DNA of 64,000 nucleotides from a virus: the UHGV virus genome UHGV-0076294; one strand, 5' to 3'. How positions within the stretch are numbered: position 1 is the first letter of the stretch; each line of letters begins with the position of its first letter. Below the pieces are notes generated by a model. That model did not search any database. It was given only the letters and a program-made list of their open reading frames with translations, and was not told where the DNA came from. Shown here one piece after another: positions 2,758 to 43,056 of the stretch. The position numbers and the translations under genes were made by a program.

Positions 2758-3285
2758 ATGGCTAAAGCCTTCAATCAACAGCTCATCGAAGCTGTAATTG
2801 CTAAAAACTCAGGAACCGCTTCTAATCTGACGGTTGGTGATGTCGATTTTGGTGCTGTTGCTGAGTTCAGCGGAGACGCTGGCCGCAACACTAAAATTAC
2901 ACTGACCGCCAAGGCAGAAAGCCAGAACTTCAAAGGCGAGAAAGAATTCCACTACACTCGTCTGGTCTCGCAAAGCCTCATTACGCTGACGGAAGTTACA
3001 GCAGAAACTACTGAAGTCGAAGATTCTGTTATCATCGCAAAACTCAACGAAGATATAGTCGCTAAAGGCTATACTGACGACGAGTTCAAAGCCGAAGAAT
3101 TGACCATTCAGAAAACTGATGCAGGTGAAGGTAATTTCAATTACACCGTTAGTGTAAACGAAGGTCATATCAAATTCTTAGCTGGACAAATCGCTGTTTA
3201 TAGCTATAAAAAGCCAGCGCCTGAAAAAGTAGCTCTGAGCGGTCTGGAAGGTGAGCTCGACGCCTTCACAGCTCCAGTAGCCTAA
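2758..3285 (+). CDS. Hypothetical protein, paralog of 3337-3870
   Basis: Strong SD gaggtaaaaaaaag; shares C-terminal GELDAFTA/GELDGFTA and internal NTKITLTA/NTKVTMTA with neighbour; followed by hairpin terminator. Confidence 0.6.
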   Translation: MAKAFNQQLIEAVIAKNSGTASNLTVGDVDFGAVAEFSGDAGRNTKITLTAKAESQNFKGEKEFHYTRLVSQSLITLTEVTAETTEVEDSVIIAKLNEDIVAKGYTDDEFKAEELTIQKTDAGEGNFNYTVSVNEGHIKFLAGQIAVYSYKKPAPEKVALSGLEGELDAFTAPVA

Positions 3286-3336: not shown

Positions 3337-3870
3337 ATGGATAGTCAAGCTACTAACCAAATGCAGCTAGTCGAGTTATATAACGCTGCCAACACTGGTT
3401 TGCCGCACAAATTGGTGTCGTCTGAAGTAAAATTTGGTCTGCCCTCTGCAAACGACGACGGTGAAAAAAATACCAAAGTTACAATGACCGCTTTACCCGG
3501 CTCAGAAAATTTCCGTGGTCAGATTGAACTTAAGTACGACCGATTAAACCCCTCCATAATTTCTGATTCTCTGGGAGTGGTCAAACTCGAGGGGGAGATA
3601 GAAAAATGGCGGGAAGATAACTATGTTCGCGCCTATCTGCAACATTATATTAACCAAGTAAAACCCAAAGACACAATAGCCACAGGCGATATTGTTTATA
3701 GTTACGAAGAAGTAAAAGAACAGGATAAACTTGTCGCACTACGAGTTACCTGCACTGTCGCTGAAAGAAACCATAAATATCTGCAAGGCGTAATGCTTGT
3801 CTTTGAAGTTAGTCCAGAAAAGATCGATCTTTCCACCACCAACGGTGAGTTGGACGGTTTTACTGCTTAA
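3337..3870 (+). CDS. Hypothetical protein, paralog of 2758-3285
   Basis: SD aggagaaaaa; paralogous motifs as above; followed by bidirectional terminator. Confidence 0.6.
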   Translation: MDSQATNQMQLVELYNAANTGLPHKLVSSEVKFGLPSANDDGEKNTKVTMTALPGSENFRGQIELKYDRLNPSIISDSLGVVKLEGEIEKWREDNYVRAYLQHYINQVKPKDTIATGDIVYSYEEVKEQDKLVALRVTCTVAERNHKYLQGVMLVFEVSPEKIDLSTTNGELDGFTA

Positions 3871-3909
3871 TCGCTAAGTCAACTATTATAACAAAAAAAT
3901 AATAAGTTT

Positions 3910-3945
3910 ACCTACCTCCTTTACGGAGGTAGGTACTTTTTTTAT
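3910..3945. terminator. Bidirectional terminator between convergent operons
   Basis: acctacctcc-tttacg-gaggtaggt followed by actttttttatttt. Confidence 0.7.
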
Positions 3946-4616
3946 TTTATCCCCATTTCTAAAGCGTACGCTCGGATGGTATCATAATCACGCTGCTCGG
4001 CTAAAAGTCGAAGCTCTTTTTTCTGCTCGGTTTTCTGATTATGCAATTTCTGATCGCGTTTCACAATCGTTGCCATCAGTTCCTTACACTGCTCCAATGT
4101 GAACGGTTCCACTCGAGCGTTTGATGTGTCCAACCAGTAATCCGGTGCGGTTTCTGATTGGATATACTGACTTAACATCTGTCTTGACGTTGAGTCTGTT
4201 TGGAAATAACGTCCGTTTAATTCAATAGGCGCATAACGTTGCTCCTCATAAAGACGCTCCATCTCTATCATGATTTTCTGAACATCCTGATAGATATACC
4301 GCACCGTAGAACGAACGTTATTTCGTATTTCTTCTAAATCAATCTCAAGAACATCAGAGATAAATTCTTTCGCTTTCTGTAGCGTAAAATTAGCCTCAAT
4401 CTCTGACATATCATAACTGCGCATCTGTTCGATTGCGGCCTTATCTTCCAACCCTTCGATTAATTTGTAATGTAGAAGCGCACAAAAACCTGCACGGCCA
4501 CGATCCTCATTGCCAATTCGTTCCATGTAATTACCGTGCCGATCGATTGGAAGCCCTCGTGAGAAATAACGTTGGCGTATTTCCTCTTTCGTTAAGCTTT
4601 CGTCAATAACAGACAT
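3942..4616 (-). CDS. Hypothetical protein (last gene of radical SAM cluster operon)
   Basis: Long ORF, start overlaps upstream gene end; no recognisable motif. Confidence 0.5.
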   Translation of the reverse strand: MSVIDESLTKEEIRQRYFSRGLPIDRHGNYMERIGNEDRGRAGFCALLHYKLIEGLEDKAAIEQMRSYDMSEIEANFTLQKAKEFISDVLEIDLEEIRNNVRSTVRYIYQDVQKIMIEMERLYEEQRYAPIELNGRYFQTDSTSRQMLSQYIQSETAPDYWLDTSNARVEPFTLEQCKELMATIVKRDQKLHNQKTEQKKELRLLAEQRDYDTIRAYALEMGIK

Positions 4617-5164
4617 TCATCATCTCCTTTAACTAAACCCAGTTCAATTAACAATTCAAAATCGATTTGGCGAAATTTGTTATCAAAACCAGAATCCCAA
4701 TCGATATGTAACCCTTGTCGTTCTTCATCGGTAAGTTCAGGATAAATTAAACCAAGGAACGCTTCACGTTCTTCGTAAAATCCATCGATAGTAGAATCTG
4801 GATTTCGTGTTGCATAGATCGTAATGCCCGGAAAGGATAATCCTAATGCTGTTATAGATTCGACGCTCGGTTCTTGCAAGGCCCTGCGTAAAAGCACGAT
4901 TTTATGTCGTGGAAATTCTAGTACACGTTGTTCAAATCCAGGATTCCGTTTCTCAATTTCTGTAACTGAAAGATCGGTGAGTTCTGTGCAATACATTGGG
5001 ATAACTACGGTTACTCCGTGACGAATTAATAGTCGTTTAACATCGTCAGTGAAGTCTTCACCGTTAATTTGCACATAACAACCAAACAGTTTTGTGCTCT
5101 CTAAAAACTTTTCCAAAAAACGGAATTTACGCTTCGTAATATTGTGGATCAGAATTGGTTTCAT
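4592..5164 (-). CDS. Hypothetical protein (radical SAM cluster)
   Basis: ORF overlapping both neighbours (coupled translation); no recognisable motif. Confidence 0.5.
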   Translation of the reverse strand: MKPILIHNITKRKFRFLEKFLESTKLFGCYVQINGEDFTDDVKRLLIRHGVTVVIPMYCTELTDLSVTEIEKRNPGFEQRVLEFPRHKIVLLRRALQEPSVESITALGLSFPGITIYATRNPDSTIDGFYEEREAFLGLIYPELTDEERQGLHIDWDSGFDNKFRQIDFELLIELGLVKGDDECLLLTKA

Positions 5165-6449
5165 CTTTGGCTTCTCTCAATTGTTTTTCTTTCTGGGCAC
5201 GTTCACGTACGCAACGAGGGCAATAACACATGCTATTATCGTGAAAATCTTTCACTGACGTCGTGCCCATTTTCTGTTTCCAATATTCCGCAACCATCAA
5301 TTTTGCAGTTGTCCAGCCGCATTGACGGCGTTCGGCGTGATAAGCTTTGCGATCTTCTAGCGTCCCTTCTCCATTCTCGTAAGATGCAGCCGCACAACTA
5401 CCACAAGCGTGCTTCATTGGACAACCTAAACAGGTTTCAGGATAGTTGGTATATTGCGTCTGAATCTCTTCCAGCAATTTCCCGTCATCTAAGCTAACGA
5501 ATTCCCGGCCAACTAATTCAAATACGGCAGAACGTGATGTTACGGTTGACATGAAACGGTTACAACCGAAGATCTTACGATCGAATCCTAAGCAGGTCAT
5601 GTGTGTTAACGTACCGCAGAACGGACGTAAACGTTCTGGATTCAAACGTACAGTATCGTTATACAATAATTGGTCGCGCCAGTTTGGTTCCCAGATAGTA
5701 TCAAAATCTAACCCGTCTGGAATGATGTGCGACAAGGTGTTACGTGGGTTGGTGTGTAAGCCCTTCTCAACCCAATAATCAACCACATCCATCATCTGCA
5801 ATGCGATTGAAGTAGCCATGCTCCGTGGCATAATGTCTTCGAAGGTTACGTTGCCGGAAATAGTTCCACCGCCAGTAATATCAATTAATGATTTCATTCC
5901 AGCAGCATAGAACGGTAACGTTTCCAACGTAAAGGTCGCTTTTACACCAAGTTCTGCAATACCGACTTCTTTTAAGTAATTATAGCCCCGCACAGCGGCC
6001 TCGTAAGATCCTTCACGAGTTGTTGTAAAAATCCGGTACTTATCGTGCGATTCGGGCAATCCATCAATAGACACCCCAATAGAAAGCCTGTCTTTCCAAC
6101 GTTCAATAATTTCTCTATTCAAAGGTCTATCTAACAATGTTCCGTTAGTAGAAATGCTAAACATAAACGGCCGATTATGTTTTTCGCATAACTCTTCTGC
6201 GGTTTCAAATGCCGCCATTAATAACTTAGGCTGCATAAACGGCTCGCCGCCGATAATGTCGATAACGACCTCGATGTTTGTCAGGTCTTTATCCCTTTCG
6301 AAACAGGCATGTAAAAAATCAACGATATCTGCCGCTTTGTTATTCCGAGGATACTTACGTTCGTAACAATACTCACAGTCTAGGTTACACGATAAATTTG
6401 TAACGATCTGATAAGTCAGTTGTTTAGGATAACTATTTTCTTGACTCAT
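5127..6449 (-). CDS. Radical SAM enzyme with C-terminal SPASM/twitch-like Cys-rich domain
   Basis: CNLDCEYC (CxxxCxxC) near N-terminus, GGEP motif; C-terminal CGTLTHMTC...GC and CLGCPMKHACGSC cysteine clusters typical of SPASM auxiliary Fe-S domains. Confidence 0.8.
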   Translation of the reverse strand: MSQENSYPKQLTYQIVTNLSCNLDCEYCYERKYPRNNKAADIVDFLHACFERDKDLTNIEVVIDIIGGEPFMQPKLLMAAFETAEELCEKHNRPFMFSISTNGTLLDRPLNREIIERWKDRLSIGVSIDGLPESHDKYRIFTTTREGSYEAAVRGYNYLKEVGIAELGVKATFTLETLPFYAAGMKSLIDITGGGTISGNVTFEDIMPRSMATSIALQMMDVVDYWVEKGLHTNPRNTLSHIIPDGLDFDTIWEPNWRDQLLYNDTVRLNPERLRPFCGTLTHMTCLGFDRKIFGCNRFMSTVTSRSAVFELVGREFVSLDDGKLLEEIQTQYTNYPETCLGCPMKHACGSCAAASYENGEGTLEDRKAYHAERRQCGWTTAKLMVAEYWKQKMGTTSVKDFHDNSMCYCPRCVRERAQKEKQLREAKDETNSDPQYYEA

Positions 6450-7356
6450 TTTCCGCCCCTCTATTACGTTCTGCCATCACTACACGACGAATGTACTCGT
6501 AAGCTTCTACACCTATTGAGGAGGCTAGTTGGTTACACCCTGCTTTCGTAGCTATTGGTACATTTTTAAGTTGGTTTTCTTCCCCGTCCGCGTCTATCCT
6601 GAGACTTTCGCTACAGGCGTTACAAGCATGATCGAAGAATCTGTTTACAATAAAGCCGCAGTCTCTAGAATTTAGAACATTCAGTCTTTCTATATTCTCC
6701 TGAATTCTAAAATACCCGTAAATAAAGTTCATAACGTGATCGGGAGATAACGGTTTTGGCATGTTTTTGTCTAGTAATAAGGACATAGAACGAAAACCGT
6801 AATGGTAGATAGCAGTATATAATTGAATGATATCTTCATGCCATCTTTTATTGGATAAATTCTCCCTCGTAACAACAGCCCAAGTGTTAACATTATTCAA
6901 GCTGTAAATTACTTCTAACGCCTCATGGCAATTATCATCAATAAAGCGCTTAAAAGGCCGTTCAGAAAGATTAAACCCATCGATGCTAACATATATAGCA
7001 TCGAATTGTTTTAACAACGGTAGATGCGATTTACGCATTTTTAAACCGTTCGTGAACATTTGGTGTTTGAGTTCAGGACGGATCGTTTTTAATTCGTCAA
7101 CAAACGCCTCAATCTTTCGAGTTGCCAGTAGCGGTTCACCGCCAGTCCACTGAATTTCAGTAATGGTTGGGTTAGACGACAACGCTTTCAAAATTCGTTC
7201 ACGTTGAAACTCTCGCGGAGAATCTTCACGATGCATGTAATAGGCTCCGCCGCAGAAGCTACAGTCCAGATTACATTTGGATGTAGCAACTACGGACAAT
7301 ACGGTGGGTTTATTGTATAAACGATTCGATAACCTTGGCTCTACGTCGGTTGTCAT
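6433..7356 (-). CDS. Radical SAM enzyme (paralog of 9406-10320)
   Basis: CNLDCSFCGG (CxxxCxxC) and GGEPLL motifs; ATG at 7356 preferred (SD ggag) over 7371; 3' end overlaps start of SPASM gene. Confidence 0.8.
   Translation of the reverse strand: MTTDVEPRLSNRLYNKPTVLSVVATSKCNLDCSFCGGAYYMHREDSPREFQRERILKALSSNPTITEIQWTGGEPLLATRKIEAFVDELKTIRPELKHQMFTNGLKMRKSHLPLLKQFDAIYVSIDGFNLSERPFKRFIDDNCHEALEVIYSLNNVNTWAVVTRENLSNKRWHEDIIQLYTAIYHYGFRSMSLLLDKNMPKPLSPDHVMNFIYGYFRIQENIERLNVLNSRDCGFIVNRFFDHACNACSESLRIDADGEENQLKNVPIATKAGCNQLASSIGVEAYEYIRRVVMAERNRGAENESRK
6679..6773. repeat. 95-nt block identical to 9643-9737 (within paralogous radical SAM genes)
   Basis: Read directly; flanking coding sequence of the two paralogs is clearly diverged. 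Confidence 0.85.
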
Positions 7357-7377
7357 TGCAGGTGACTCCATCTATTT

Positions 7378-8265
7378 TTAAATATAGCCAATGGATAACA
7401 AAGGATCGTCGTAAGCGTTAACTCCGGGTTTTAATACAAATGGTGAATTGTAAGCCTCGATAATGCGATTAAGGTCCTTATAACGCACGTTTAAACGTTC
7501 TAAATCCGCCAACGTTACGTTACGTTCCAATACCGCCGACACTGCTGCTTTTTCTTCATCAGTTAACGTGACTTTCGTCATTAAGAAACTAACAAGTTTT
7601 GCTAAATCTGCTTCCGATGACGGGTGTTCACCAATACGTGTTTGAATTAAATGTTGCATCCACGGCTTACGAATACGTTTTGTGATTTCATGTTCATCTG
7701 TAAGGGCAACCCACACAGAGCGTTCGCGATCCCACACAAATTTATAACTGTACGCCATCAGATCGGCTAAGCAGTTGATGCCAAGCTCCTCGTAACCTTC
7801 TATTTCAATGTACGGTTCGGTATCAACATAGTTTTTTGTTTCTACAGGAACCAGTGCATAAAAGTACGGGAATGAACCGAGATAGTCTGGAGACCACCAA
7901 CGACGTGCTACAGGCTTCGCATTCAACTCTTTAAATGGCGTAAAGAACAATTCCAAATCTACAGAATTATTCAGAATACCGTCACTAAAGAAATATTTAC
8001 CGTCAACCAATTTACCGCGTAAATCTGAATCACCGGTAAACACCACTACGCTTTCTGCTGACAGATCGCGTATTTTAAAAGTGTTTTCTACTGAATAGTT
8101 ATTGCGATCGGTAAAAAAACGACCGCGCACTTTGGGCCATTCGCCAGGTAACTGAGTTAACAAACGAACTTTATCTTCCAAATGAGCGCGTATTGAATCG
8201 GGGGAAGAAATATGAAGTGGGTGGTTGAAAATTGTTTTATAGGCTAAATGCAAATCGTTTTTCAT
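7378..8265 (-). CDS. Hypothetical protein (radical SAM cluster)
   Basis: Long ORF between Cys-rich genes and radical SAM gene; no recognisable motif. Confidence 0.5.
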   Translation of the reverse strand: MKNDLHLAYKTIFNHPLHISSPDSIRAHLEDKVRLLTQLPGEWPKVRGRFFTDRNNYSVENTFKIRDLSAESVVVFTGDSDLRGKLVDGKYFFSDGILNNSVDLELFFTPFKELNAKPVARRWWSPDYLGSFPYFYALVPVETKNYVDTEPYIEIEGYEELGINCLADLMAYSYKFVWDRERSVWVALTDEHEITKRIRKPWMQHLIQTRIGEHPSSEADLAKLVSFLMTKVTLTDEEKAAVSAVLERNVTLADLERLNVRYKDLNRIIEAYNSPFVLKPGVNAYDDPLLSIGYI

Positions 8266-8277
8266 TGATTACTCCAA

Positions 8278-8757
8278 TTATTTTACGGTCAATCTGACGT
8301 TCAAGGTATAGAACCCGCCACGCCATTGCCTGCCGGTAACTTCAAATTCCGCAGTAAAGCCGTTTGATTTACTCGGTTGCTGCGTAATCGCCATGGTTCC
8401 GCCGGAATTACTTAATACTTCTAACGAGATAGAAACAGAAGATGCATTACCGATAGAGTCTATCTTAAAACTAGCCGCGTCTGTAAAATTGACACTGATA
8501 CCGTTACCCATCGCAACTTGTGGATAGGCGTAAGACTTGCCAGACAGTAACGATTTAAAGATCCTCATCGGTTTTTCTTTACCGGTTAATGTTGCGCATT
8601 GAATAAAGACGGTCCCAGTAGAGAAATTGATACGGACAACATCTTTAGCGTGTAGCTTAGACTCAACATAAACAACGGCTTTGTTATCGTAGGCGGGTCT
8701 TGATGGGGTTGGTGTGGAACCGCCGCCGGAGGGCTTACTTACCCCCCCCCCGCTCCC
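8278..8757 (-). CDS. Hypothetical protein; frame is open upstream of the first ATG (8568) up to the C10 tract, candidate frameshift fusion partner of the Cys-rich ORF 8739-8945
   Basis: ORF track gives 8278-8568; same frame has no stop from 8757 down to 8568 and no obvious SD before the ATG at 8568. Confidence 0.4.
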   Translation of the reverse strand, partial: GSGGGVSKPSGGGSTPTPSRPAYDNKAVVYVESKLHAKDVVRINFSTGTVFIQCATLTGKEKPMRIFKSLLSGKSYAYPQVAMGNGISVNFTDAASFKIDSIGNASSVSISLEVLSNSGGTMAITQQPSKSNGFTAEFEVTGRQWRGGFYTLNVRLTVK

Positions 8758-8945
8758 TTACTACAGCTACCGCTGCACGACCAACTACAACCACCGTTAC
8801 AATTATAATGACTTAAAGGTAACCCAGCTAGATTGTTGGTTGAAGAAACCGTCCCTTGGTTTGCAATATAGTTGTTTGCATTAGCGGTGGTGATATATCC
8901 CTCCGCTGTTACTAACCTGTCGCGTATGTTTTTAAGACTTATCAT
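8739..8945 (-). CDS. Cys-rich leader+core peptide C (short core, ends in poly-Gly encoded by C10 tract)
   Basis: Leader MISLKNIRDRL and junction HYNCNGGCSWSCSGSCS are paralogous to peptides A and B; start 3 nt after stop of peptide B. Confidence 0.55.
   Translation of the reverse strand: MISLKNIRDRLVTAEGYITTANANNYIANQGTVSSTNNLAGLPLSHYNCNGGCSWSCSGSCSKGAGGG
8742..8751 (-). repeat. C10 homopolymer (G10 on coding strand) at 3' end of Cys-rich ORF C
   Basis: Read directly; encodes the terminal GGG; a 1-nt frame change here joins an open downstream frame. Confidence 0.9.
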
Positions 8946-8948
8946 TTC

Positions 8949-9347
8949 TTATCTTCCAGTACACGATTGCTGACATCCGCCTCGACATGAACCCGAACAT
9001 GTTCCGGTGCAACTACTTGAACAACCACCCGAGCAGTTACCTGTGCACCCTCCTGAGCAGGTACTGCTACAACCTGTACAACCTGTACTACATCCTGAAA
9101 CACAGTTCGCTGAACAGGAAGAACCGCAGCCACCGGAGGCGTTGCCGGTGCAGCCGCCCGAACAACTTGAGCATGTCCAGCTACAGCTACCTCCGCAGTC
9201 ATAGTGAGTTCTCGGCTGTCCTCCAAACAGATCGCTATTATTAGTGGCTTTACCACGAATATAGTTCTGCACCGCACCAGTGTTTTTTAATGCAGTAGAG
9301 TCTATGTTATCCAGCCGGGCCTTTAAAGAAGATAAACCAATCGCCAT
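8949..9347 (-). CDS. Cys-rich leader+core peptide B (precursor-like; about 24 Cys at C-x3-C spacing)
   Basis: Leader about 45 aa then DCGGSCSWTCS followed by repeats such as CSGGCTGNCSGGCSSSC; SD aggt. Confidence 0.65.
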   Translation of the reverse strand: MAIGLSSLKARLDNIDSTALKNTGAVQNYIRGKATNNSDLFGGQPRTHYDCGGSCSWTCSSCSGGCTGNASGGCGSSCSANCVSGCSTGCTGCSSTCSGGCTGNCSGGCSSSCTGTCSGSCRGGCQQSCTGR

Positions 9348-9405
9348 TTTAATACCTACTGGTTTAGTGCCCCCTAGGACACATTATAATTCATTTTCTG
9401 TAAAA

Positions 9406-10320
9406 TTATCGTAGTTTTTCTGAGACTCTATTCTTAGCCCCTACCACACGACGTATATAGTCGTAAGCATCTAATCCAACCTTTCTGGCCAAGTCACTAC
9501 AACCATGCTGCGTTACGATTTCAACGTTCTTTACTTGGTTCTGGGCACCGTCAGACTCAATGCGAAAACAACGACTACACGTATTACAGGGTTCATCAAA
9601 TAACGCATTTAGCGTAAACGCACATTCACTTCGATTGGACGAATTCAGTCTTTCTATATTCTCCTGAATTCTAAAATACCCGTAAATAAAGTTCATAACG
9701 TGATCGGGAGATAACGGTTTTGGCATGTTTTTGTCTAAAACCAGCGACATCTCACAAAAACCATAATGGTAAATGTGGTTATGTAACGCAATTATATCTT
9801 CGTACCAACGTTTATCCCCAATACGCTCGCGTGTCAAGACCGCCCAAGTACGAATATTTTTCAATTCGTAAATTGTCTCCAAAACCTCGTATTGTTTTTC
9901 TTCGATAATCCTCATGAACGGACGCTCTGATTCTTTGAATCCATCCATGCTAAAAAAGATACTATCAAAACCCTTTAACAACGGTAGATGCGATTTACGC
10001 ATTTTTAAACCATTGGTATACAGGTAATGTTCGCAACGAGGATACTTCTCCCTTATCTCTTCTATAAGGGTATCAATTTTACGCGAGGCAAGTAATGGTT
10101 CGCCCCCTGACCATTGGATATTTGTGATAGTCGGGTTATTTTCCAGCGCCTCGATAATACTTTCCTTTTGTACTTCTGTGGTTGTATCCTCTCTATGCAT
10201 GTAATAGGCTCCGCCGCAGAAGCTACAGTCCAGATTACATTTGGACGTTGTAATCACGTTTAACGTTCTCGGATTACTGTAGAGCTTATCGGATACCGTC
10301 GGTCTAGTAAGTTCTTCCAT
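9406..10320 (-). CDS. Radical SAM enzyme (paralog of 6433-7356)
   Basis: CNLDCSFCGG motif; SD aagga; begins 19 nt after stop of peptide A. Confidence 0.8.
   Translation of the reverse strand: MEELTRPTVSDKLYSNPRTLNVITTSKCNLDCSFCGGAYYMHREDTTTEVQKESIIEALENNPTITNIQWSGGEPLLASRKIDTLIEEIREKYPRCEHYLYTNGLKMRKSHLPLLKGFDSIFFSMDGFKESERPFMRIIEEKQYEVLETIYELKNIRTWAVLTRERIGDKRWYEDIIALHNHIYHYGFCEMSLVLDKNMPKPLSPDHVMNFIYGYFRIQENIERLNSSNRSECAFTLNALFDEPCNTCSRCFRIESDGAQNQVKNVEIVTQHGCSDLARKVGLDAYDYIRRVVGAKNRVSEKLR
9643..9737. repeat. 95-nt block identical to 6679-6773
   Basis: Read directly. Confidence 0.85.
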
Positions 10321-10339
10321 TCGAACTGATCCTTATTTT

Positions 10340-10735
10340 TTATGGGTTAGAACAACCACCTGCACAAGAACCACTACACCCCGAGGAACAACGTCCAGCA
10401 CATCCCCCAGTACAAGTCCCACTACATCCTGAACAACCACCCGAACATGTTCCGGTGCAACCACTGCATTGATTACCACACGCAGAGGAACAGCTTCCTA
10501 CGCACACCGATGTACATGTACCTGAACAACTCGTACAACCATGCGTACAACCGTTTGAGCATGTCCAGCTACAGCTACCTCCGCAGTCTAATCGACCGGG
10601 TGTCCAACCTGAAAATGAATCAGCAGCATTATGTGCTTTCGACGCAACTTGCGGATCAACACGTGGCCCAGTTGCTATTCGGTTCTCTACGTTGGTGATT
10701 CGGTCACGTACGTTTTTAACACTGATCGCCATCAC
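10340..10735 (-). CDS. Cys-rich leader+core peptide A (precursor-like)
   Basis: Leader MMAISVKNVRDRITNVENRI..., junction RLDCGGSCSWTCS, core of C/G/S/T with C-x3-C periodicity; SD aaggat. Confidence 0.65.
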   Translation of the reverse strand: MMAISVKNVRDRITNVENRIATGPRVDPQVASKAHNAADSFSGWTPGRLDCGGSCSWTCSNGCTHGCTSCSGTCTSVCVGSCSSACGNQCSGCTGTCSGGCSGCSGTCTGGCAGRCSSGCSGSCAGGCSNP

Positions 10736-10754
10736 ATATCCTTAAAATAAAAAA

Positions 10755-10790
10755 GAATGGAGGACTACGTCCATAAACATAGTTCCTCCT
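10755..10790 (-). terminator. Imperfect hairpin with U-rich tail on minus strand between fibre gene and Cys-rich peptide A
   Basis: ggaggact...agttcctcc; minus strand reads hairpin then attctttttatttt. Confidence 0.4.
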
Positions 10791-10799
10791 GTAATTAAA

Positions 10800-11999
10800 T
10801 TATTTCGTACCCGCTTCTGCTTGTACGTCATCACGAGACGTCAGGTTAGCGTTAACGTGCACTGGGGCCTGAACCACGCCACCGTATCTCTTGTGGAGAT
10901 AACCTGTATGTGGGTTATCTGCCGCAATGTGGTTTTGTAGGTTTTGGTTCGCCTGACTGATTGCGTTCGTGTTATTATTAACCTGCTGTTTAAGCGCATC
11001 CAGGTTTTGTTGTAACTGATCGATTTTCTGATCGGTTTCTTGGCCATGTTGCTCTAACGCTTCAACACGCTGAATAACCTGATTCAGTTTTGTATTTAAA
11101 TCGTTGACACTCTTTTGCAGTTGTAACACTAACGAGTTCAGGTTCGCTAACGCTAAAGCCATTTTCTGGTAGTTTTGAGCAACCACGTTAAGTTGGTCGT
11201 TCCACGCTTCCAGAGAGCTGACAACAGCGTCAATACGCTTACCTAAAGCTTCATCTGCTTTCTTCAGTGCATTGATTTCCGTAATCGTTGCGTCGATAGC
11301 AGACTGGACGTCACGAATAAGCGCACGGATTTCAGTTTCTGTTAGTCCATTAACCTGATGGATATCAAGTTGGTGGACGTTACCGGTTGCATTGATGTGC
11401 GCATTTAAAGCGTCCAAGAAGTCGTTTTTCAGACTTTCCAGAATCGCTTTAATGTTCTCTAACTGTACCGCATCGCCAGAACTGATCGCGTCCTTAATGC
11501 CCGCCAATACAGCGATGATATATTCAAAGCCATAAATGTCACCTACGTCTTTATACGTCGGCGCTGACGGGAATGTATCTGGTACGTTACGTAAGTCTTT
11601 AAATGCAACTGTACGGTTATCGAGGTTTAGCTCAGCAATCGCTTGTTCGATAGCCACGATGTTTGCAGACTGTGGGCCACCAACTACCTGCGCAGATACC
11701 GTAATGTCTGTCGGAATCGCTGTGTTAGTGACCACAACCGCCATGACAATCTCGCGGTTTTTAGTCAGCTTTTCATAAGCCGGGTGTGCAAAAATCAACT
11801 CATAATCGGTACCACGTTCGTAGGTTGCATCCGGTCGGTTAGCAACGCGCAAACGAAACGTGTCCGCAAAGAACGGGCCGTCAGGAAAAGCAAAAGCACG
11901 GTTTACTTTACCTGTACCTAACGTAACCTGACGCTCCACAGCGTTAGACGTTAGCGAGCCTGTTAAATCTAAAGGATATTGGTAAACAATGGAGGCCAT
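10800..11999 (-). CDS. Tail fibre-like protein with coiled-coil region
   Basis: N-terminal module shared with the three large downstream proteins (PDGPFFADTFRL...GTDYEL); long Q/N/L-rich heptad-like segment; ATG at 11999 preferred over GTG at 12005. Confidence 0.5.
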   Translation of the reverse strand: MASIVYQYPLDLTGSLTSNAVERQVTLGTGKVNRAFAFPDGPFFADTFRLRVANRPDATYERGTDYELIFAHPAYEKLTKNREIVMAVVVTNTAIPTDITVSAQVVGGPQSANIVAIEQAIAELNLDNRTVAFKDLRNVPDTFPSAPTYKDVGDIYGFEYIIAVLAGIKDAISSGDAVQLENIKAILESLKNDFLDALNAHINATGNVHQLDIHQVNGLTETEIRALIRDVQSAIDATITEINALKKADEALGKRIDAVVSSLEAWNDQLNVVAQNYQKMALALANLNSLVLQLQKSVNDLNTKLNQVIQRVEALEQHGQETDQKIDQLQQNLDALKQQVNNNTNAISQANQNLQNHIAADNPHTGYLHKRYGGVVQAPVHVNANLTSRDDVQAEAGTK

Positions 12000-12039
12000 G
12001 GCCACTCTCCTTTATTCGAGACGTCCTTGTCCCGAGTCA

Positions 12040-15000
12040 TTAAGATGTAAACATAAGATTGAACTGGAGTTTGTCGATATCTCGAGTTTCAGCCGGATTC
12101 AACGCATCGAACGTAGTTGCCACATAAACCGTTAGCGTACCATCATCATACGAAGATTTCACCGGCGGATTAGTTCCAGTCTGACCATCTCTCACAACGA
12201 GTGCAGGCTCGCTGGGAAGATTATCAAACTGCCCTTTAACCGCTTTGTATACCAAACCGGACTGTGCAGATAACTCCGTGTCTGTGTACACACAGAACGG
12301 TGTATCGATGTCAGCTTGTTTGATAGTGGTACCGGATTCGACATCAATCAACTGTACTGCTCCAAACTTCGTGCGATAACTTTCATATTCGTTCTTCGGA
12401 ATAACAAAAGTAACGTGAACACGAACTTCTTCAGCGGGCTTAAAGCCAGTATGTTCTTTTTCCAAATACTGATTGGCTGATAGCGTCACTTTTTGTTCGG
12501 CCATCGAACCACCTGCCTGATTTATTCCGTACCGGGCTTCAACAATACCGGTTGGTGCAGCAAGTCGCAATTTCAGAGTTCGATTCGCCGTTCCTGGATT
12601 ACCTGGCACTTGAACGCGCAAACTCAATGCTAAGTAAGCATACGTTCCGGTAGTCGGTTTCGTATACGCACCTATCCATTTCATGTTCGCAGACGCTGCC
12701 TGCGAGTTCTCAGAAGCAGTAGCTGTCGCAATGTTAGCAGCTACCGCTTTCTGCCAGAATTGGTCGGCGCAGTTCTCATACGCTACTCTGGCCACGCTCT
12801 TATAACCCGAATACGTTTCCTGGATTGGTATCTTAGGACGCGTCGTGATGCCAGACAATGAACCCCATTTCTGGCCGTCAACATACCCTTCGCCCTTCGA
12901 CGCAGACGCCGTAGGTGCTTTAACGGGCTTGTTAATCAGTGTTAATAGAGGACCCGTCTTTCTGTCGAACGCTGCCGCTACATCGTGTTGGTCGATAATT
13001 GCTGCGTGGTCTTCCAGCTCTTTCACACGACCCAAGCGTTTTACTTTGTCGATACTGATATCAGTAATACGGCTGGAATCGGTGGTTACTGTCCCAACGA
13101 ACAGTCTTGTTGAAGTATCGGCTAACTGCTCCAAACCGATGCGGTATTGCGCGGTAGAACCCGACACCTCAGCGTGCACGTAGAACGTCTGGTTAGCGTG
13201 ATTGGACGGGAACTCGCTGCTTAAATCCACAGACCACGTTGGGAGTGTATAGCTGCTACTACCGAAATCTAACTTGACTTCTTCAGTCAGATACAGAATC
13301 CAACCTTCCGCTGTTTCCACACCGGCGATGATAACAGCCTGACCTCCGGTTGAGAAGGTCGTGTCGTTAACAAACTCTGCGGCTGTATACGCGTTACCTG
13401 AGCAGAAAACGCGGTCAGCTTTAGAGAAAATCAACGCCATCTTGTCCCAGTTACCCGCACCCATATAGCACCCAGATTCTGGGTTATGTGCAGGAGCCAT
13501 CTGTCGTAACTGCGACTTACCAGGAACGCGAGACCAACCTGAACCTGGGTCGTAGGTATACTTCGCGGCGTAACCTAGTGCGTTTAAGTCCCCGATATTT
13601 CGGATAGTTAACGTATAAGGTAGCCAGATACCGAAGTTAGTTCCATCCGCAGAAGCGAAAATAGGCTGTCCGACGCGACGGGTCTTATTACCAGCCTCCT
13701 CTCTTAACGACTGATAACTTAAACCGTAATCTTTATCCAGGAACCAATCCACCAACTTAAAGGTAGCTGAGTTGAACCGTAAGTAGCCATTCTCTTTAGA
13801 TGGACTCACCATGAAGTAATAGATATCAAGAATTCGACGTCCGTTACTTAAGGTTTTCATGCACGAAACTTGCAACAAGTCAAACTCGCACACGGTATTG
13901 ATACCCAACATCCAAAGAGCAAACAAGGCATTACCGGTTTGATGTGCAGCACTAATACGCTCGTTTGCGTATCCGTTCGCTTCACCAGAAGGCGCACCGT
14001 CAACGATCATCTGAATCATTTTCTGACGATCGGTTTCTTCTAACGTTAAGCGTTCAGAAGACAACGCAAAGTTACCGTAGATGTTACGATACGGGAACGT
14101 TTCTGCTTTGGTCAAATACCAACCATTTAATTGACCGTGACGTTCTTCAGGGATCATGCACGCCGCCATACAGCTAAGCTGTTCGTAAAGCGTTGCATCG
14201 ACTTCACGACGGTTGTTATTCGGTCCGTAGCCACTGTAACCCGGAACGTCGTAAGGTTTATTCGGATCAACTTCCACTTCGATGGTATAACGGTTACGTG
14301 GGTTTGACAACCACACCTTATTCGAACCACCAATTCCGACAGGATGAGAAAGACCGATGGTATAAATAGAACCACGACCTTTATCCCAGGTAAACGTTCC
14401 TTCGCCTGAGGTATTGTTTGGGTTATCGTAACGCAGATAATCGAAAAGCTCTTTGCCTTGCGTTCCTTTAATAGAAACGTTAGGCATCTGGTCTGCATCG
14501 TTAATCTGCCAACAGGAAAGCATCATTCCCGTACCGTTGGGTTTAGCATACGTCGCGAAACAACGATTGTTTGCTTGACCACCGCCCCACTTACGGCTGG
14601 TTTCTACAGTTGAACCATCCGCGAAAGAGAGTGTAGTAGCATCAGCCTTGATGGGGAAGCGTTCGCGGCCTTCTAACGTAACCTTGCCCGTCGACGTATC
14701 GATTGTAAAACTTGTTGCCCATTGACGAAAGTTAATTTGTGAGCTGTCAGCCGCTGCAAACCACACAGTAGGCATATGGTTCACACGAATCACGCCGTCG
14801 CGCACTGCACAAGCATGGTTACATTCTGGACCGTGAACAAAGTTGCAACCAATTGTCCATTTAGCCCGTGCTTCCGGCGTCAAATACGTAAAGAACTGAC
14901 CCGTTTGTGACTCTTCGGTTTTCTGGCCAATGCGTAGGCAGAGGTTATCTCCAAATTGTCCCATCTCCCCGTTTAGTGTTACGCGTTCAAACTCCAGCGT

Positions 15001-17223
15001 GGTGCTAGTAGACAAATCGTCCTTACGTAGACGCCAAGCTGCTACTGCGTAAGCAGAGTTATTTACCGTAGAGCGGAGAAGATAAACGTAATCCTCAACC
15101 AACACAACATCATCGGCTTCTGGCCACGGATTCCAGGTTTGTTCCACAGTACCGCTGGGGTTGCCGTTACGGTACACGGGCATCGTAACGCGACATACCA
15201 CCGTGTGTTTAGTGTGATCCATCGAACCATTAAACAACACCAAATAACGGTTATTATCAGAACCCAGACAAATAATCGCTTCCTGACCACCGATCAATAT
15301 AGCTTTCAGGGTCACTTCAGGATATTTACTCATCCCGGCAGGGTGATATTTCACTGAGGTCTGCTGCGGATTTACAAACGCGTTTGACGTGTTAATGTCA
15401 GCATAGCCGTAATAAATGGCTTCTGTACCCGGTACGCCGTTAGAACCGTTACGGAGCGAATAAACCTTACCCTGCTGATACCCAACAACCCCTTTTTGAT
15501 AAGACTGGTTTTTGGTATAACCCGAATAGTTACCTAGCGCTGGGATAGGTAAGAAGTTCTTGTTACCGAACTTCGCACCACCTACCGTCCACGCCGGTAA
15601 GATGGTATTCAGTTTATCAGAGACTTTCTTAATCTCTTTTGCGAACAGCCACCCTTGACGCGACGTGACAGCTTTATCGTTAGTAGTGTCAATCGCATCC
15701 CAGAGCTGCAAGATGCCGTCAACCGTTGCACTACCAATTGGAATGTTAACCAAGTCAGCAGTGGTGTGTGTATGCGTCTTCAAACTCTTGTTTTTCAACA
15801 CGTTCGTTAACGCTTTCGTCACCGGCTTAGCACTTGGCGTGGTGTTATCCATCTTATCGATACCGAAATCGGTTTTCGTTAAGGTTAACACCATACTGTC
15901 GCCTACCTTAACAAACCCTTTACCGTTAACGGTATAGTCATCGTCAACGTACAGGTCCAAGCGGTCTTTTAATTCGGTTACGGCTTTCTGGGAGATAGCA
16001 GTACCTAACGCCGCAGACGTGGAGATATTCGTAATCGAGAACAACCCATAAACTGATTCGGTCGCTGTGGGAATATTCGCGTTTAACGTAACCGGGTTAG
16101 TCTGTTTTGCGGTACCGTACGGTTTTACAGTGTCTGACGCTTTGAAATACGCGTTTGCTTCGAGCAACGTTACTGACGTCAGGTACATGTTCACCATTTC
16201 TGGCGTAACCAGATACACGGAGTTATAAACTGGCGCTAATACATCCTGTTCTGACCCCGAGTGAACCCAAAGCGTATTCAGACCCGCACTGAATTCAACC
16301 GCTAAACCCGATTCGTTGTTGTCCTGGTCTGCTTTAATCACCAACGGTTGTGGCGAGGTAATTAACCACTTATCACCACGAATACTGATGATGTGGCCAC
16401 CTGACGTTTTAAACGTTAATTCATTACTGTTCGTGGTACCCCATCGACCGTAAACGGTGCCGAGGGCTTCACCCATTAACTGGTCAACGTCCGATTGCTC
16501 AATACCCGCTGAACCCATCAGCGTAGCCAACTCGTCAATCGTCAACCCAAACGCTTTTGTAGCGTCAACAGCACGTCCTAATACGGGAAGAGCAGCAATG
16601 TCATCAGTGGTATAATGATGCGCGTTAGGGTTACGGTGATGCTGGTATAATTCTTCGTCGAAAACCTTTTTCCCGTTCTCGTAAATCAGGTTAGTGACTT
16701 CACTGAACGCAGCATCTAACTCCGTAGAACGCTTAATGATTTTCTTGCGAATGTCTTCTAACGCCTTAACAACCTCATCCCTCAGAATCGCTTCTTCTAA
16801 GTTAGCAGGCGGGTCGATAGGCTGAATAACCGGCGCATACGCCATTAGTTCAGACCAGTCCACGTTACGTGGGTCTTTCAGGTCAGTACGAACTAAGAAC
16901 TTCCCGATTTCAGATTGCGGTACACGATATTGACGTGCTACCCCTAAAATCTCATATTCGATTTCTGTTGCAGTAAGCAACATAAACCCGCCGTAAATCT
17001 GATCTTGTTCAGCTTCTGCGAGTTCTTTAAAGTAATAGCCTAAATAGTAGTCCAACCCCTCAATCAGAGTACGACGTCCGTTAGGCGCGGTATCGTCGGC
17101 TACTGTGAGTTTTAATCCGATACGATAAAAAGGTCCTTCAGGTGGAATGACCACGTTAAATCGGTTAGGGTACGTTGCTGTGCTTAGCGTACCGTTAAAC
17201 TGCGCCGCGTCTTCTCTCGGCAT
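12040..17223 (-). CDS. Large structural protein, tail fibre/spike candidate (1727 aa)
   Basis: SD aggagtc; N-terminal module IPPEGPFYRIGLKL...GLDYYL resembles tail-fibre attachment domains; G/S/T/N-rich beta-like composition. Confidence 0.5.
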   Translation of the reverse strand: MPREDAAQFNGTLSTATYPNRFNVVIPPEGPFYRIGLKLTVADDTAPNGRRTLIEGLDYYLGYYFKELAEAEQDQIYGGFMLLTATEIEYEILGVARQYRVPQSEIGKFLVRTDLKDPRNVDWSELMAYAPVIQPIDPPANLEEAILRDEVVKALEDIRKKIIKRSTELDAAFSEVTNLIYENGKKVFDEELYQHHRNPNAHHYTTDDIAALPVLGRAVDATKAFGLTIDELATLMGSAGIEQSDVDQLMGEALGTVYGRWGTTNSNELTFKTSGGHIISIRGDKWLITSPQPLVIKADQDNNESGLAVEFSAGLNTLWVHSGSEQDVLAPVYNSVYLVTPEMVNMYLTSVTLLEANAYFKASDTVKPYGTAKQTNPVTLNANIPTATESVYGLFSITNISTSAALGTAISQKAVTELKDRLDLYVDDDYTVNGKGFVKVGDSMVLTLTKTDFGIDKMDNTTPSAKPVTKALTNVLKNKSLKTHTHTTADLVNIPIGSATVDGILQLWDAIDTTNDKAVTSRQGWLFAKEIKKVSDKLNTILPAWTVGGAKFGNKNFLPIPALGNYSGYTKNQSYQKGVVGYQQGKVYSLRNGSNGVPGTEAIYYGYADINTSNAFVNPQQTSVKYHPAGMSKYPEVTLKAILIGGQEAIICLGSDNNRYLVLFNGSMDHTKHTVVCRVTMPVYRNGNPSGTVEQTWNPWPEADDVVLVEDYVYLLRSTVNNSAYAVAAWRLRKDDLSTSTTLEFERVTLNGEMGQFGDNLCLRIGQKTEESQTGQFFTYLTPEARAKWTIGCNFVHGPECNHACAVRDGVIRVNHMPTVWFAAADSSQINFRQWATSFTIDTSTGKVTLEGRERFPIKADATTLSFADGSTVETSRKWGGGQANNRCFATYAKPNGTGMMLSCWQINDADQMPNVSIKGTQGKELFDYLRYDNPNNTSGEGTFTWDKGRGSIYTIGLSHPVGIGGSNKVWLSNPRNRYTIEVEVDPNKPYDVPGYSGYGPNNNRREVDATLYEQLSCMAACMIPEERHGQLNGWYLTKAETFPYRNIYGNFALSSERLTLEETDRQKMIQMIVDGAPSGEANGYANERISAAHQTGNALFALWMLGINTVCEFDLLQVSCMKTLSNGRRILDIYYFMVSPSKENGYLRFNSATFKLVDWFLDKDYGLSYQSLREEAGNKTRRVGQPIFASADGTNFGIWLPYTLTIRNIGDLNALGYAAKYTYDPGSGWSRVPGKSQLRQMAPAHNPESGCYMGAGNWDKMALIFSKADRVFCSGNAYTAAEFVNDTTFSTGGQAVIIAGVETAEGWILYLTEEVKLDFGSSSYTLPTWSVDLSSEFPSNHANQTFYVHAEVSGSTAQYRIGLEQLADTSTRLFVGTVTTDSSRITDISIDKVKRLGRVKELEDHAAIIDQHDVAAAFDRKTGPLLTLINKPVKAPTASASKGEGYVDGQKWGSLSGITTRPKIPIQETYSGYKSVARVAYENCADQFWQKAVAANIATATASENSQAASANMKWIGAYTKPTTGTYAYLALSLRVQVPGNPGTANRTLKLRLAAPTGIVEARYGINQAGGSMAEQKVTLSANQYLEKEHTGFKPAEEVRVHVTFVIPKNEYESYRTKFGAVQLIDVESGTTIKQADIDTPFCVYTDTELSAQSGLVYKAVKGQFDNLPSEPALVVRDGQTGTNPPVKSSYDDGTLTVYVATTFDALNPAETRDIDKLQFNLMFTS

Positions 17224-17239
17224 CGTAAAGACTCCTACT

Positions 17240-17280
17240 TTTTAAATAAAATGGATACCCCTCCCCATTACAGGGAGGGG
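17240..17280 (-). terminator. Hairpin terminator between large fibre genes (minus strand)
   Basis: cccctcccc-attaca-gggagggg; minus strand tail T-rich. Confidence 0.55.
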
Positions 17281-17318
17281 TTACCTACGGACACACAACT
17301 GCCCGCAGGCAGCCTGTC

Positions 17319-39535: not shown

Positions 39536-39979
39536 ATGGAAATTTATTTGTTGAACGCACTTTCTAAAATCGGTGAAGAACAAGCGAAAGATTTACTCGC
39601 ACTTCATTACCGTTACTTAGATCATCAAGCAACGATGCTGAAAATCAAAACCGCTGTACCGAAATTAAACGTGCGTCAACTGATCGAAGGCAACTGTGTT
39701 GTTCTGATTTATATCGACGATGTTGCGGCGGGTTATTGCAGTTACCGTAATCGCAACGGGGTACTCAAAATTCGTTCGCTATACGTGCTGCCCGATTACC
39801 GTCAGCGTGGGGTAATGAAAGAAATCTTCAAAGCGATAGCCGCTGATGAAGCATTCGGTGAAATTGCAATTGGGATGTACACGAAGTGCAAAGAAGCGAA
39901 AGAGTATTTCATTCGTCGTGGCTACAAAGCAACCTATTCTCACGATAAAGAATGGGTGGATTTCAGTAAAACTTTCTAA
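39536..39979 (+). CDS. GNAT-family N-acetyltransferase
   Basis: Motif VLPDYRQRGVMKEIF matches the GNAT acetyl-CoA binding region (R/Q-x-x-G-x-G/A). Confidence 0.6.
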   Translation: MEIYLLNALSKIGEEQAKDLLALHYRYLDHQATMLKIKTAVPKLNVRQLIEGNCVVLIYIDDVAAGYCSYRNRNGVLKIRSLYVLPDYRQRGVMKEIFKAIAADEAFGEIAIGMYTKCKEAKEYFIRRGYKATYSHDKEWVDFSKTF

Positions 39980-42576: not shown

Positions 42577-43056
42577 ATGTTGAAGTTTATCTGGCGTTAC
42601 CCAACCCGCTTTTGGTTCGTGGTATTAGAGGTAATCACCGTTTTACTGTTAGTGACGTTCGTAAACGCCTCTACGAAACAAATGGTGATTTTCTGTGTAT
42701 TCGACGCTATACCGTTGTGGGTATTTGCAAAGATTATTAAGTTTTACATGATAAGCTGGGCGAACTACACCTGTCCATTTAAACCCAGAGAAATCATGAA
42801 CTGGTTGATGTATATCGAAGACCGTTTACCCGCTCAGTCTAAAACGTTAGGCTGGCAATCGATGTTGGATATTGCGCTAGAAACAAACGCAAAATTCCCT
42901 GGGTCAAAGAATCCTTATTTGCTGCTGGCTGTTATTGTTGCCCAGCAGAAACGTGCAGGCGAACGTTGGTTACCGAAAGAAGCGAAAGAGTATATTCGTA
43001 AACATCCGAAGGCTTTCTATTCCGTAGGTCAATGGCGTAACCTCCCACTCTTTTAA
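42577..43056 (+). CDS. Membrane protein (two predicted TM helices)
   Basis: SD aaaggagcaaagg; hydrophobic segments FWFVVLEVITVLLLVTFV and MVIFCVFDAIPLWVFAKII. Confidence 0.5.
   Translation: MLKFIWRYPTRFWFVVLEVITVLLLVTFVNASTKQMVIFCVFDAIPLWVFAKIIKFYMISWANYTCPFKPREIMNWLMYIEDRLPAQSKTLGWQSMLDIALETNAKFPGSKNPYLLLAVIVAQQKRAGERWLPKEAKEYIRKHPKAFYSVGQWRNLPLF

Follow-up and report, generated by a model that had tools for sequence, protein, structure and literature searches.

Probable recurrent short-patch gene conversion between two old radical SAM paralogs in a jumbo phage genome

Introduction

Gene conversion in short patches between diverged duplicates is familiar from eukaryotic loci such as CYP21A2/CYP21A1P and the globin and opsin duplicates, where selection keeps functional differences elsewhere. 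The bacterial tuf genes are nearly identical along their full length and conversion spans the gene, while the 'His boxes' of T-even tail-fibre genes, reportedly described by Tetart et al. in 1998, are said to be short conserved islands in divergent phage genes that serve as recombination sites. The transfer between the dispersed paralogs tufA and tufB of Salmonella is non-reciprocal, the two genes co-evolve, and the tracts are stochastic in length and bounded by homology (Paulsson et al., 2017; PMC5485169). Concerted evolution of long duration in prokaryotes (PMC6053082), including that of rRNA operons (PMC8022953), is recognized by paralogs within a genome being closer than orthologs between genomes, recurrently across lineages. 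Here we analyse two short radical SAM genes, which we name rSAM-A and rSAM-B, of the UHGV virus genome UHGV-0076294, studied as a stretch of 64,000 nucleotides (nt; hereafter the window). They are diverged paralogs that share three exactly identical blocks.

We favor, with a probability of about 0.9, the view that these blocks result from recurrent, short-patch, non-reciprocal homologous recombination (gene conversion) between old direct-repeat paralogs 2964 nt apart. As in tufA/tufB, the transfer would be non-reciprocal, between two paralogs of one genome and bounded by homology; unlike in tufA/tufB, the paralogs are ~42% diverged, only three islands of 38-95 nt are exchanged, the genome is that of a phage, the direct repeats lie 3 kb apart, and the process is known here from sequence alone. 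The same signature of within-genome paralog similarity in several lineages is seen as in the other prokaryotic cases, but those concern whole genes or operons in cellular genomes, whereas the present case is partial (~20% of the gene), on the scale of tens of nt, and viral. With the eukaryotic cases only the mosaic pattern is alike, as the recombination machinery and meiotic context differ. The likeness to the 'His boxes' would lie in the islands within divergent phage genes and in the tail-fibre region, though the His boxes are said to swap adhesin domains between phages and not to homogenize two paralogs of one genome. The data support regarding the radical SAM pair as a new, well-documented instance of a known process, and the current understanding of that process is not overturned.

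Three exact blocks in two diverged radical SAM genes

The window belongs to a jumbo phage, with DNA ~70% identical to that of the SPN3US/SEGD1 group (Seoulvirus). The two genes are the following open reading frames (ORFs), with lengths in amino acids (aa):

6433..7371, minus strand: rSAM-A, 312 aa, short radical SAM gene
9406..10320, minus strand: rSAM-B, 304 aa, extra paralog between the two long cysteine-rich genes

Both match Pfam PF04055 (48.7 bits for rSAM-A and 53.5 bits for rSAM-B; cutoff 29.5) and carry the CX3CX2C cluster motif in the form CNLDCSFC, which places them in the radical SAM superfamily; no specific NCBIfam model scored above its cutoff for either. The original prediction had the 6433 end of rSAM-A right but set its other end at 7356, which is an internal ATG within an ORF that runs to 7371. 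This ATG is the probable true start, giving the 307-aa form found in orthologs. As had been noticed from the outset, the two genes are clearly diverged: they share 61% aa and 66% nt identity overall, and the latter falls to ~57-58% outside three blocks that cover about 20% of the gene:

6679..6773, minus strand: block 3, rSAM-A copy; 95 nt; encodes DKNMPKPLSPDHVMNFIYGYFRIQENIERLN; exact match to 9643-9737
9643..9737, minus strand: block 3, rSAM-B copy; exact match to the rSAM-A copy
7010..7047, minus strand: block 2, rSAM-A copy; 38 nt; inside TNGLKMRKSHLPLLK; exact match to 9974-10011
9974..10011, minus strand: block 2, rSAM-B copy; exact match to the rSAM-A copy
7231..7281, minus strand: block 1, rSAM-A copy; 51 nt; encodes SKCNLDCSFCGGAYYMH, which holds the CX3CX2C motif; exact match to 10195-10245
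10195..10245, minus strand: block 1, rSAM-B copy; exact match to the rSAM-A copy

Blocks 1 and 3 are exact over precisely the spans first reported, and the peptides DKNMPKPLSPDHVMNFIYGYFRIQENIERLN and CNLDCSFCGGAYYMH are encoded as originally read; block 2 is likewise exact, but is 38 nt long and not 37. All three blocks share an offset of 2964 nt, implying that there are no indels between them.

The identity within the blocks was expected to stand out from the rest of the genes, and it does. Among aa-identical codons, the degenerate codons are the same in 56 of 56 cases inside the blocks, as against 47 of 121 (39%) outside (p^n ~1e-23), and the latter value indicates that synonymous sites are essentially saturated. 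Shuffling matches and mismatches in 20,000 permutations yielded a longest run of at most 37 nt, never reaching the observed 95 nt; shuffling codon identity among aa-identical codons only gave at most 22 codons as opposed to the 31 observed. Protein conservation alone does not yield nucleotide identity of this kind: the family-invariant GGEPLLA has one of seven codons identical between the copies and SERPF none of five. Only the three longest aa-identical runs (32, 21 and 15 codons) are homogenized, with identical codons making up 90% in aa-identical runs of at least 15 codons versus 35% in runs of 4-7.

When all 64 kb of the window were scanned for exact k-mers, only six exact direct repeats of at least 18 nt were found, of which three are the rSAM blocks, two lie in the pair of cysteine-rich genes C132 and C131 (see below) and one is an 18-mer. 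This 18-mer (39890-39907 and 42976-42993) encodes a short KEAKEY motif close to the C-terminus of each of two ORFs (147 aa and 159 aa; BLASTP E = 0.004) that show hardly any other similarity, and is probably due to chance. A control pair of paralogs (2758-3285 versus 3337-3870), with 40% aa and 63% nt identity, has a longest exact run of 7 nt; hence, paralogs in this window do not generally undergo conversion. A diversity-generating retroelement was considered and rejected: the 295 mismatches between rSAM-A and rSAM-B fall on all bases (A/C/G/T in the A copy = 82/80/59/74) and all codon positions, with no adenine bias.

Single-copy relatives and the question of nucleotide-level constraint

The rSAM-A gene is the syntenic ortholog of the SPN3US/SEGD1 'radical SAM superfamily protein 2' (63% aa identity, same gene order). 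SEGD1, pEa_SNUABM_29, SPAsTU and Huxley have a common backbone with one short radical SAM gene, in the rSAM-A position, and each of more than 60 GenBank phage records shows exactly one rSAM match. The rSAM-B gene is missing from all GenBank relatives and also from the metagenomic relative L007, in which C131 and C132 lie 10 nt apart (6306-6317). Relative to L007, rSAM-B (window flanks 9348-9405 and 10321-10339) appears as a clean insertion or deletion with no obvious flanking repeats. Below, W stands for the window, W_A and W_B for its two genes, and L7_A and L5_A for the A-type genes of L007 and of the two-copy genome L005.

Beside gene conversion, the original prediction had offered strong nucleotide-level constraint as a cause of the identity: each block would be an RNA or DNA element, such as a structured RNA, a regulatory site or an antisense target, that needs the exact sequence in both genes. 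Such an element would fit with the blocks being exact and in the same register in both genes, and blocks 1 and 2 fold slightly better than shuffled sequences (z = -1.02 and -1.63). However, the 95-nt block, for which structure prediction had been suggested as a check, folds worse than shuffles on both strands (z = +1.24 and +0.38), and there was no Rfam match at E <= 1 in 4000-13000. The single-copy orthologs show no excess of synonymous conservation: L007, SEGD1, Ea29, SPAsTU, Huxley and L015 differ at many synonymous block positions. The fraction of identical codons among aa-identical ones, inside and outside the blocks respectively, is 0.62 and 0.63 for W_A/L7_A, 0.46 and 0.42 for W_A/SEGD1, and 0.54 and 0.47 for L7_A/SEGD1, as opposed to 0.93 and 0.39 for W_A/W_B. 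Moreover, the block sequence changes between genomes while remaining equal between the copies. We accordingly regard constraint as very improbable.

The blocks evolve in concert across lineages

Scans of IMG/VR, JGI/ENA metagenomes and a protein collection yielded 17 two-copy genomes, representing 10 distinct (A, B) haplotypes, in assemblies from NCBI, ENA (with both SPAdes-style and MEGAHIT-style contig names) and IMG/VR. The same three-block pattern is seen in assemblies of all three origins. One protein, P0039, is by itself carried by at least 36 contigs. In all 10 haplotypes the three regions are exactly identical between the genome's own A and B copies, apart from single-copy single-nucleotide polymorphisms (SNPs) in L052 and L055, while the ends vary by lineage. 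In the numbering of the 924-nt gene, the tracts are:

W, L037 and L038: block 1, 76-126; block 2, 310-347; block 3, 584-678
L045 type: block 1, 73-126; block 2, 310-347 (307-347 in L056); block 3, 589-672
L005 and L006: block 1, 64-123; block 2, 301-347; block 3, 595-678

The A=B tract lengths for blocks 1, 2 and 3 are thus 51, 38 and 95 nt in W, 60, 47 and 84 nt in L005, and 54, 38 and 84 nt in the L045 type.

That the original prediction was right to propose gene conversion is indicated by the same regions being identical in L005, L006 and the L045 type with lineage-specific ends, and by substitutions common to both copies. Sites 99, 312, 318, 328, 336 and 660 are polymorphic among the genomes, yet A equals B at each of them in 10 of 10 haplotypes. 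L005 and L006 have genes that are 96-98% identical, and between them both copies have changed jointly at four sites of block 2 (47 nt); there is also a non-synonymous joint change, RKSHLP to RKTHLP, found in both copies of L005 and L006. When informative sites were classed as concerted or orthologous, the W versus L005 comparison gave 5/0 inside the blocks versus 9/128 outside (Fisher p = 4.5e-6), and L005 versus L006 gave 4/5 versus 1/256 (p = 3e-6); across the site-pattern Fisher tests as a whole, p ranges from 1e-6 to 2e-5. Inside the blocks, the nt identity of W_A to W_B (0.96) exceeds that of W_A to L7_A (0.83), whereas outside them the order is reversed (0.57 versus 0.77). The rSAM pair therefore shows two copies in one genome, phylogenetic incongruence, co-variation across lineages and synonymous identity, which together support its concerted evolution.

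These patterns bear on whether a single historical event might suffice, with rSAM-B being a one-time chimera, or one old conversion having occurred, and the present identity being a relic. The tract positions are broadly alike in all two-copy genomes, and no co-varying site is seen within the W clade, as such an origin would lead one to expect. Against it stand the joint changes at 4-5 block sites, seen when W is compared with L005/L006 and when L005 is compared with L006, and the boundaries that differ among W, the L045 type, L056 and L005; further, a relic would gather copy-specific synonymous differences at the rate of its flanks. We see very little chance of a single event being the whole explanation. 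Recurrence also modifies the original prediction, which had called the exchange recent: the exchange holds, but is better termed recurrent, with an old duplication followed by repeated conversion, including after the split of L005 and L006.

An assembly artefact would arise if near-identical repeats were collapsed, or bubbles popped, such that one consensus was written into both copies. Two observations are of the sort that this predicts: the ~230-kb contigs L039 and L040 break off inside block 3 of rSAM-A, after exactly 77 and 55 nt, both numbers being k-mer lengths (k) typical of assemblers, and there are short contigs with A/B hybrids that switch inside the blocks (see below). But at least 10 distinct haplotypes, coming from separate projects and different assemblers, show the pattern, and the tract ends vary by lineage. 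In addition, SNPs present in a single copy are retained within blocks, at position 114 in L052 (A only) and position 330 in L055 (B only); such SNPs are expected between conversion events, and their preservation indicates that the assemblers are not collapsing variants. Finally, the blocks, at no more than 95 nt, are shorter than 2k+1 for the evident values of k (55, 77 and 141), so that a paralog-specific SNP would presumably form no simple bubble. An artefact as the source of the blocks is, to our mind, extremely improbable.

A proposed homology-limited mode of conversion

How could genes with saturated synonymous sites continue to recombine? We propose that purifying selection on the protein would hold three stretches, each with 15 or more invariant codons, at ~80-90% nt identity, and that only these islands would still allow the two copies to pair. 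In replicating phage DNA, the direct repeats would begin to pair at the islands, and each event would overwrite one gene with the other (A with B in the informative cases) and proceed until the mismatch-dense flanks halt it. The event would reset the island to 100% identity, easing the next one. The molecular route would be strand invasion or annealing, or else template switching, among replicating phage genomes; an acting recombinase, a conversion rate and a donor bias are features that we infer along with it. Chi sites were sought and none was found in the window.

The restriction of conversion to aa-identical runs of at least 15 codons fits such homology-limited conversion. As a proxy for the unconverted state, W_B can be compared with the single-copy L7_A: the two share 66% identity over the whole gene and 79-91% in the block regions, where exact runs of 17-20 nt occur. 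Three of the six tract ends in W lie at synonymous differences within aa-identical runs (T, R/E and T/N codons), which favors a homology limit over pure selection on the protein.

Age of the duplication, donor direction and mosaicism

Outside the blocks, the aa identity of B to A-type proteins is 49-54% and that of B to the Seoulvirus orthologs 45-47%, while A-type and Seoulvirus proteins share 56-63%. With B further from A than A is from Seoulvirus, B either predates the A/Seoulvirus split or evolves fast. Given the saturated synonymous sites and the greater distance of B than of the Seoulvirus ortholog from A, the A/B duplication is, as far as sequence divergence can date it, ancient. No B-type gene forming an independent lineage turned up beyond the two-copy clade.

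The direction of transfer can be read in three patches. W_A shows the B-type DKN instead of the DA(N/K/M) of other A-type and Seoulvirus genes, and the B-type MH instead of their M(N/D); L5_A shows the B-type VITT. B thus appears to be the donor (B to A) in all three informative patches. Between the A orthologs of W and L005, identity is 93% inside the blocks, a value equal to the B-B similarity, versus 70% outside, but the value of this comparison as evidence of direction is qualified by the rSAM-A region sitting in a 76% mosaic segment of W/L005. A further candidate marker of B derivation, CTGAAT at the 3' end of block 3 in W_A, was rejected since the single-copy L7_A and L5_A also carry it; the odd state is instead TTAAAC (gene positions 673-678) in the L045-type A.

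The mosaicism itself is extensive. W and L005 are 93% identical over 8761-17300 (from the fibre genes through rSAM-B to the cysteine-rich gene C68) and 76% over 3901-8272 (from the gene for a 295-aa protein onward, including rSAM-A), with a sharp junction at ~8272-8761 in the window, corresponding to 9561-9603 in L005; a 96-aa ORF at this junction is present in the window and not in L005. L037-L040 encode an rSAM-B identical to that of the window (P0001), yet are only 92.6-94.2% identical to it over 3835-16320. The rSAM genes of L037 are 1-2 nt from those of the window, so most of the divergence lies elsewhere, probably in the fibre genes, suggesting further mosaicism.

Certain points weigh against recurrent conversion as we have described it. 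Within the closest clade, in the comparison of W with the L046 type, no fully co-varying site is seen. All two-copy genomes are metagenome or incidental assemblies and not clonal long-read genomes. The remaining three tract ends in W (of six) lie next to aa differences, and selection against longer tracts may contribute beside homology limitation. The donor direction draws on three informative patches with few characters. Conversion events as such are read from sequence patterns.

Hybrid genes: crossovers or mis-joins

A/B hybrids of these radical SAM enzymes, P0002, P0003, P0004 and P0031, are present in public protein collections and come from short metagenome contigs (L034-L036, L041-L044). 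Three of these, P0002-P0004 (74-87% identity), were considered as diverged B-type proteins and rejected as such, since they are A/B hybrids with every switch point in a block. In L034 and L041-L044 the sequence is B up to block 3 and A thereafter, with C131 upstream and the 440-aa radical SAM/SPASM gene downstream, an arrangement such as a 2.96-kb deletion would leave. This deletion-type hybrid comes from five samples and two studies. In the reciprocal form, L036, A gives way to B at block 3, and L035 switches twice, from B to A at block 1 and back to B at block 3. The flanks of the hybrids are 99-100% identical to two-copy haplotypes of the same cohorts (L043 to L056, L042 to L046, L034 to L055). 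Such hybrids may be either recurrent real crossovers or recurrent assembler mis-joins.

One could imagine that the islands are selected recombination sites, kept because crossover there shuffles maturase halves, or deletes or duplicates a 3-kb cassette with C132, C68, the 96-aa ORF and the 295-aa gene. The hybrids with B 5' and A 3' parts and deletion-type neighbors, on five contigs, would be products of this kind, as would the A5'/B3' and B-A-B forms, given that every switch falls inside the blocks. Nevertheless, hybrids occur only on contigs of at most 8.4 kb, and their flanks match different co-occurring two-copy haplotypes; they are thus not established as a lineage. The 295-aa gene (phrog_8030), which every relative retains, is also missing from the deletion form; assembler mis-joins fit the same data; and there is no sign that selection, in addition to conversion itself, favors the repeats. 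We consider selection for recombination sites to be improbable. The related proposition that the islands are live crossover sites in natural populations, with the contigs L034-L036 and L041-L044 being real molecules, is doubtful in our estimate, although less so. Were it true, crossover at block 3 would repeatedly yield B5'/A3' hybrid maturases together with the 2.96-kb deletion, as well as reciprocal and long-tract products, and the phage population would hold a standing pool of variants of a maturation cassette for cysteine-rich proteins next to the tail-fibre genes.

A second paralog pair with exact blocks

The genes flanking rSAM-B form a pair of their own:

8949..9347, minus strand: C132, 132-aa cysteine-rich CXXX-repeat protein; phrog_6085
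10340..10735, minus strand: C131, 131-aa cysteine-rich CXXX-repeat paralog of C132

They are 52% identical at the nt level overall and contain two exact blocks:

9167-9200 (C132) = 10555-10588 (C131): 34 nt; motif DCGGSCSWTCS
8991-9013 (C132) = 10439-10461 (C131): 23 nt; different register

The codons of the motif show 0-3 differences between C132 and C131 in genomes with two rSAM copies versus 6-7 in L007-type genomes. Variants common to both copies are again observed, namely GAC/GAT between W and L037 and GGT/GGC between L005 and L006. This suggests that C132 and C131 undergo the same conversion process, with the evidence being weaker than for the rSAM pair.

The gene neighborhood

The two pairs are part of a region on the minus strand (5127-12005) with three radical SAM genes and three cysteine-rich CXXX-repeat proteins, directly downstream of genes for a 1727-aa tail-fibre-like and a 401-aa virion protein. 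Its other members are:

5127..6449, minus strand: ORF for a radical SAM/SPASM protein of 440 aa, overlapping the end of rSAM-A by 17 nt
8739-8945, minus strand: C68, 68-aa cysteine-rich gene
8278-8568: 96-aa ORF, downstream of C68

In transcriptional order, the genes are the 1727-aa fibre-like gene, the 401-aa virion structural gene, C131, rSAM-B, C132, C68, the 96-aa ORF, the 295-aa protein, rSAM-A and the 440-aa radical SAM/SPASM gene. All three radical SAM genes fall in phrog_1802, and all three cysteine-rich proteins in phrog_6085. The best NCBIfam match of the 440-aa enzyme is the maturase model for CXXX-repeat targets, TIGR04115, at 118 bits and hence under its cutoff of 350. The corresponding target model, TIGR04114, is matched by C132 with 22.3 bits and by C131 with 20.1 bits, the latter barely at the cutoff of 20. 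The region looks like a maturation system in the style of ribosomally made and post-translationally modified peptides in a jumbo phage. Literature searches on SPN3US radical SAM genes, on radical SAM and cysteine-rich proteins of jumbo phages and on CXXX-repeat maturases found nothing specific.

The 3' end of C68 contains a homopolymer of G (8742-8751), with ten residues in the window, L038 and L040 and nine in L008, L037 and L039. Were its length 8 or 11, C68 would be fused in frame with the downstream 96-aa ORF to give a 222-aa protein, and the tract may be a slippage or frameshift site. Among the phage radical SAM proteins, members of the P0005, P0009, P0021 and P0038 clusters carry Salmonella enterica or Shigella flexneri protein names in NCBI bacterial assemblies, which hints at the host range and at phage DNA inside isolate assemblies.

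Significance

The rSAM pair offers an unusually clean natural example of homology-limited micro-conversion, in which genes saturated at synonymous sites still trade patches of 38-95 nt. The population sample captures the process in motion, with tract ends moving and new SNPs awaiting homogenization. There are also practical consequences: these repeats cause breaks or mis-joins in metagenome assemblies, hybrid 'proteins' pose as diverged homologs, and phylogenies of these radical SAM genes are distorted unless the blocks are masked. For the biology of these viruses, the finding means that intragenomic concerted evolution operates in jumbo phages, and it draws attention to an unstudied cluster of three radical SAM genes and three CXXX-repeat cysteine-rich genes by the tail-fibre genes.

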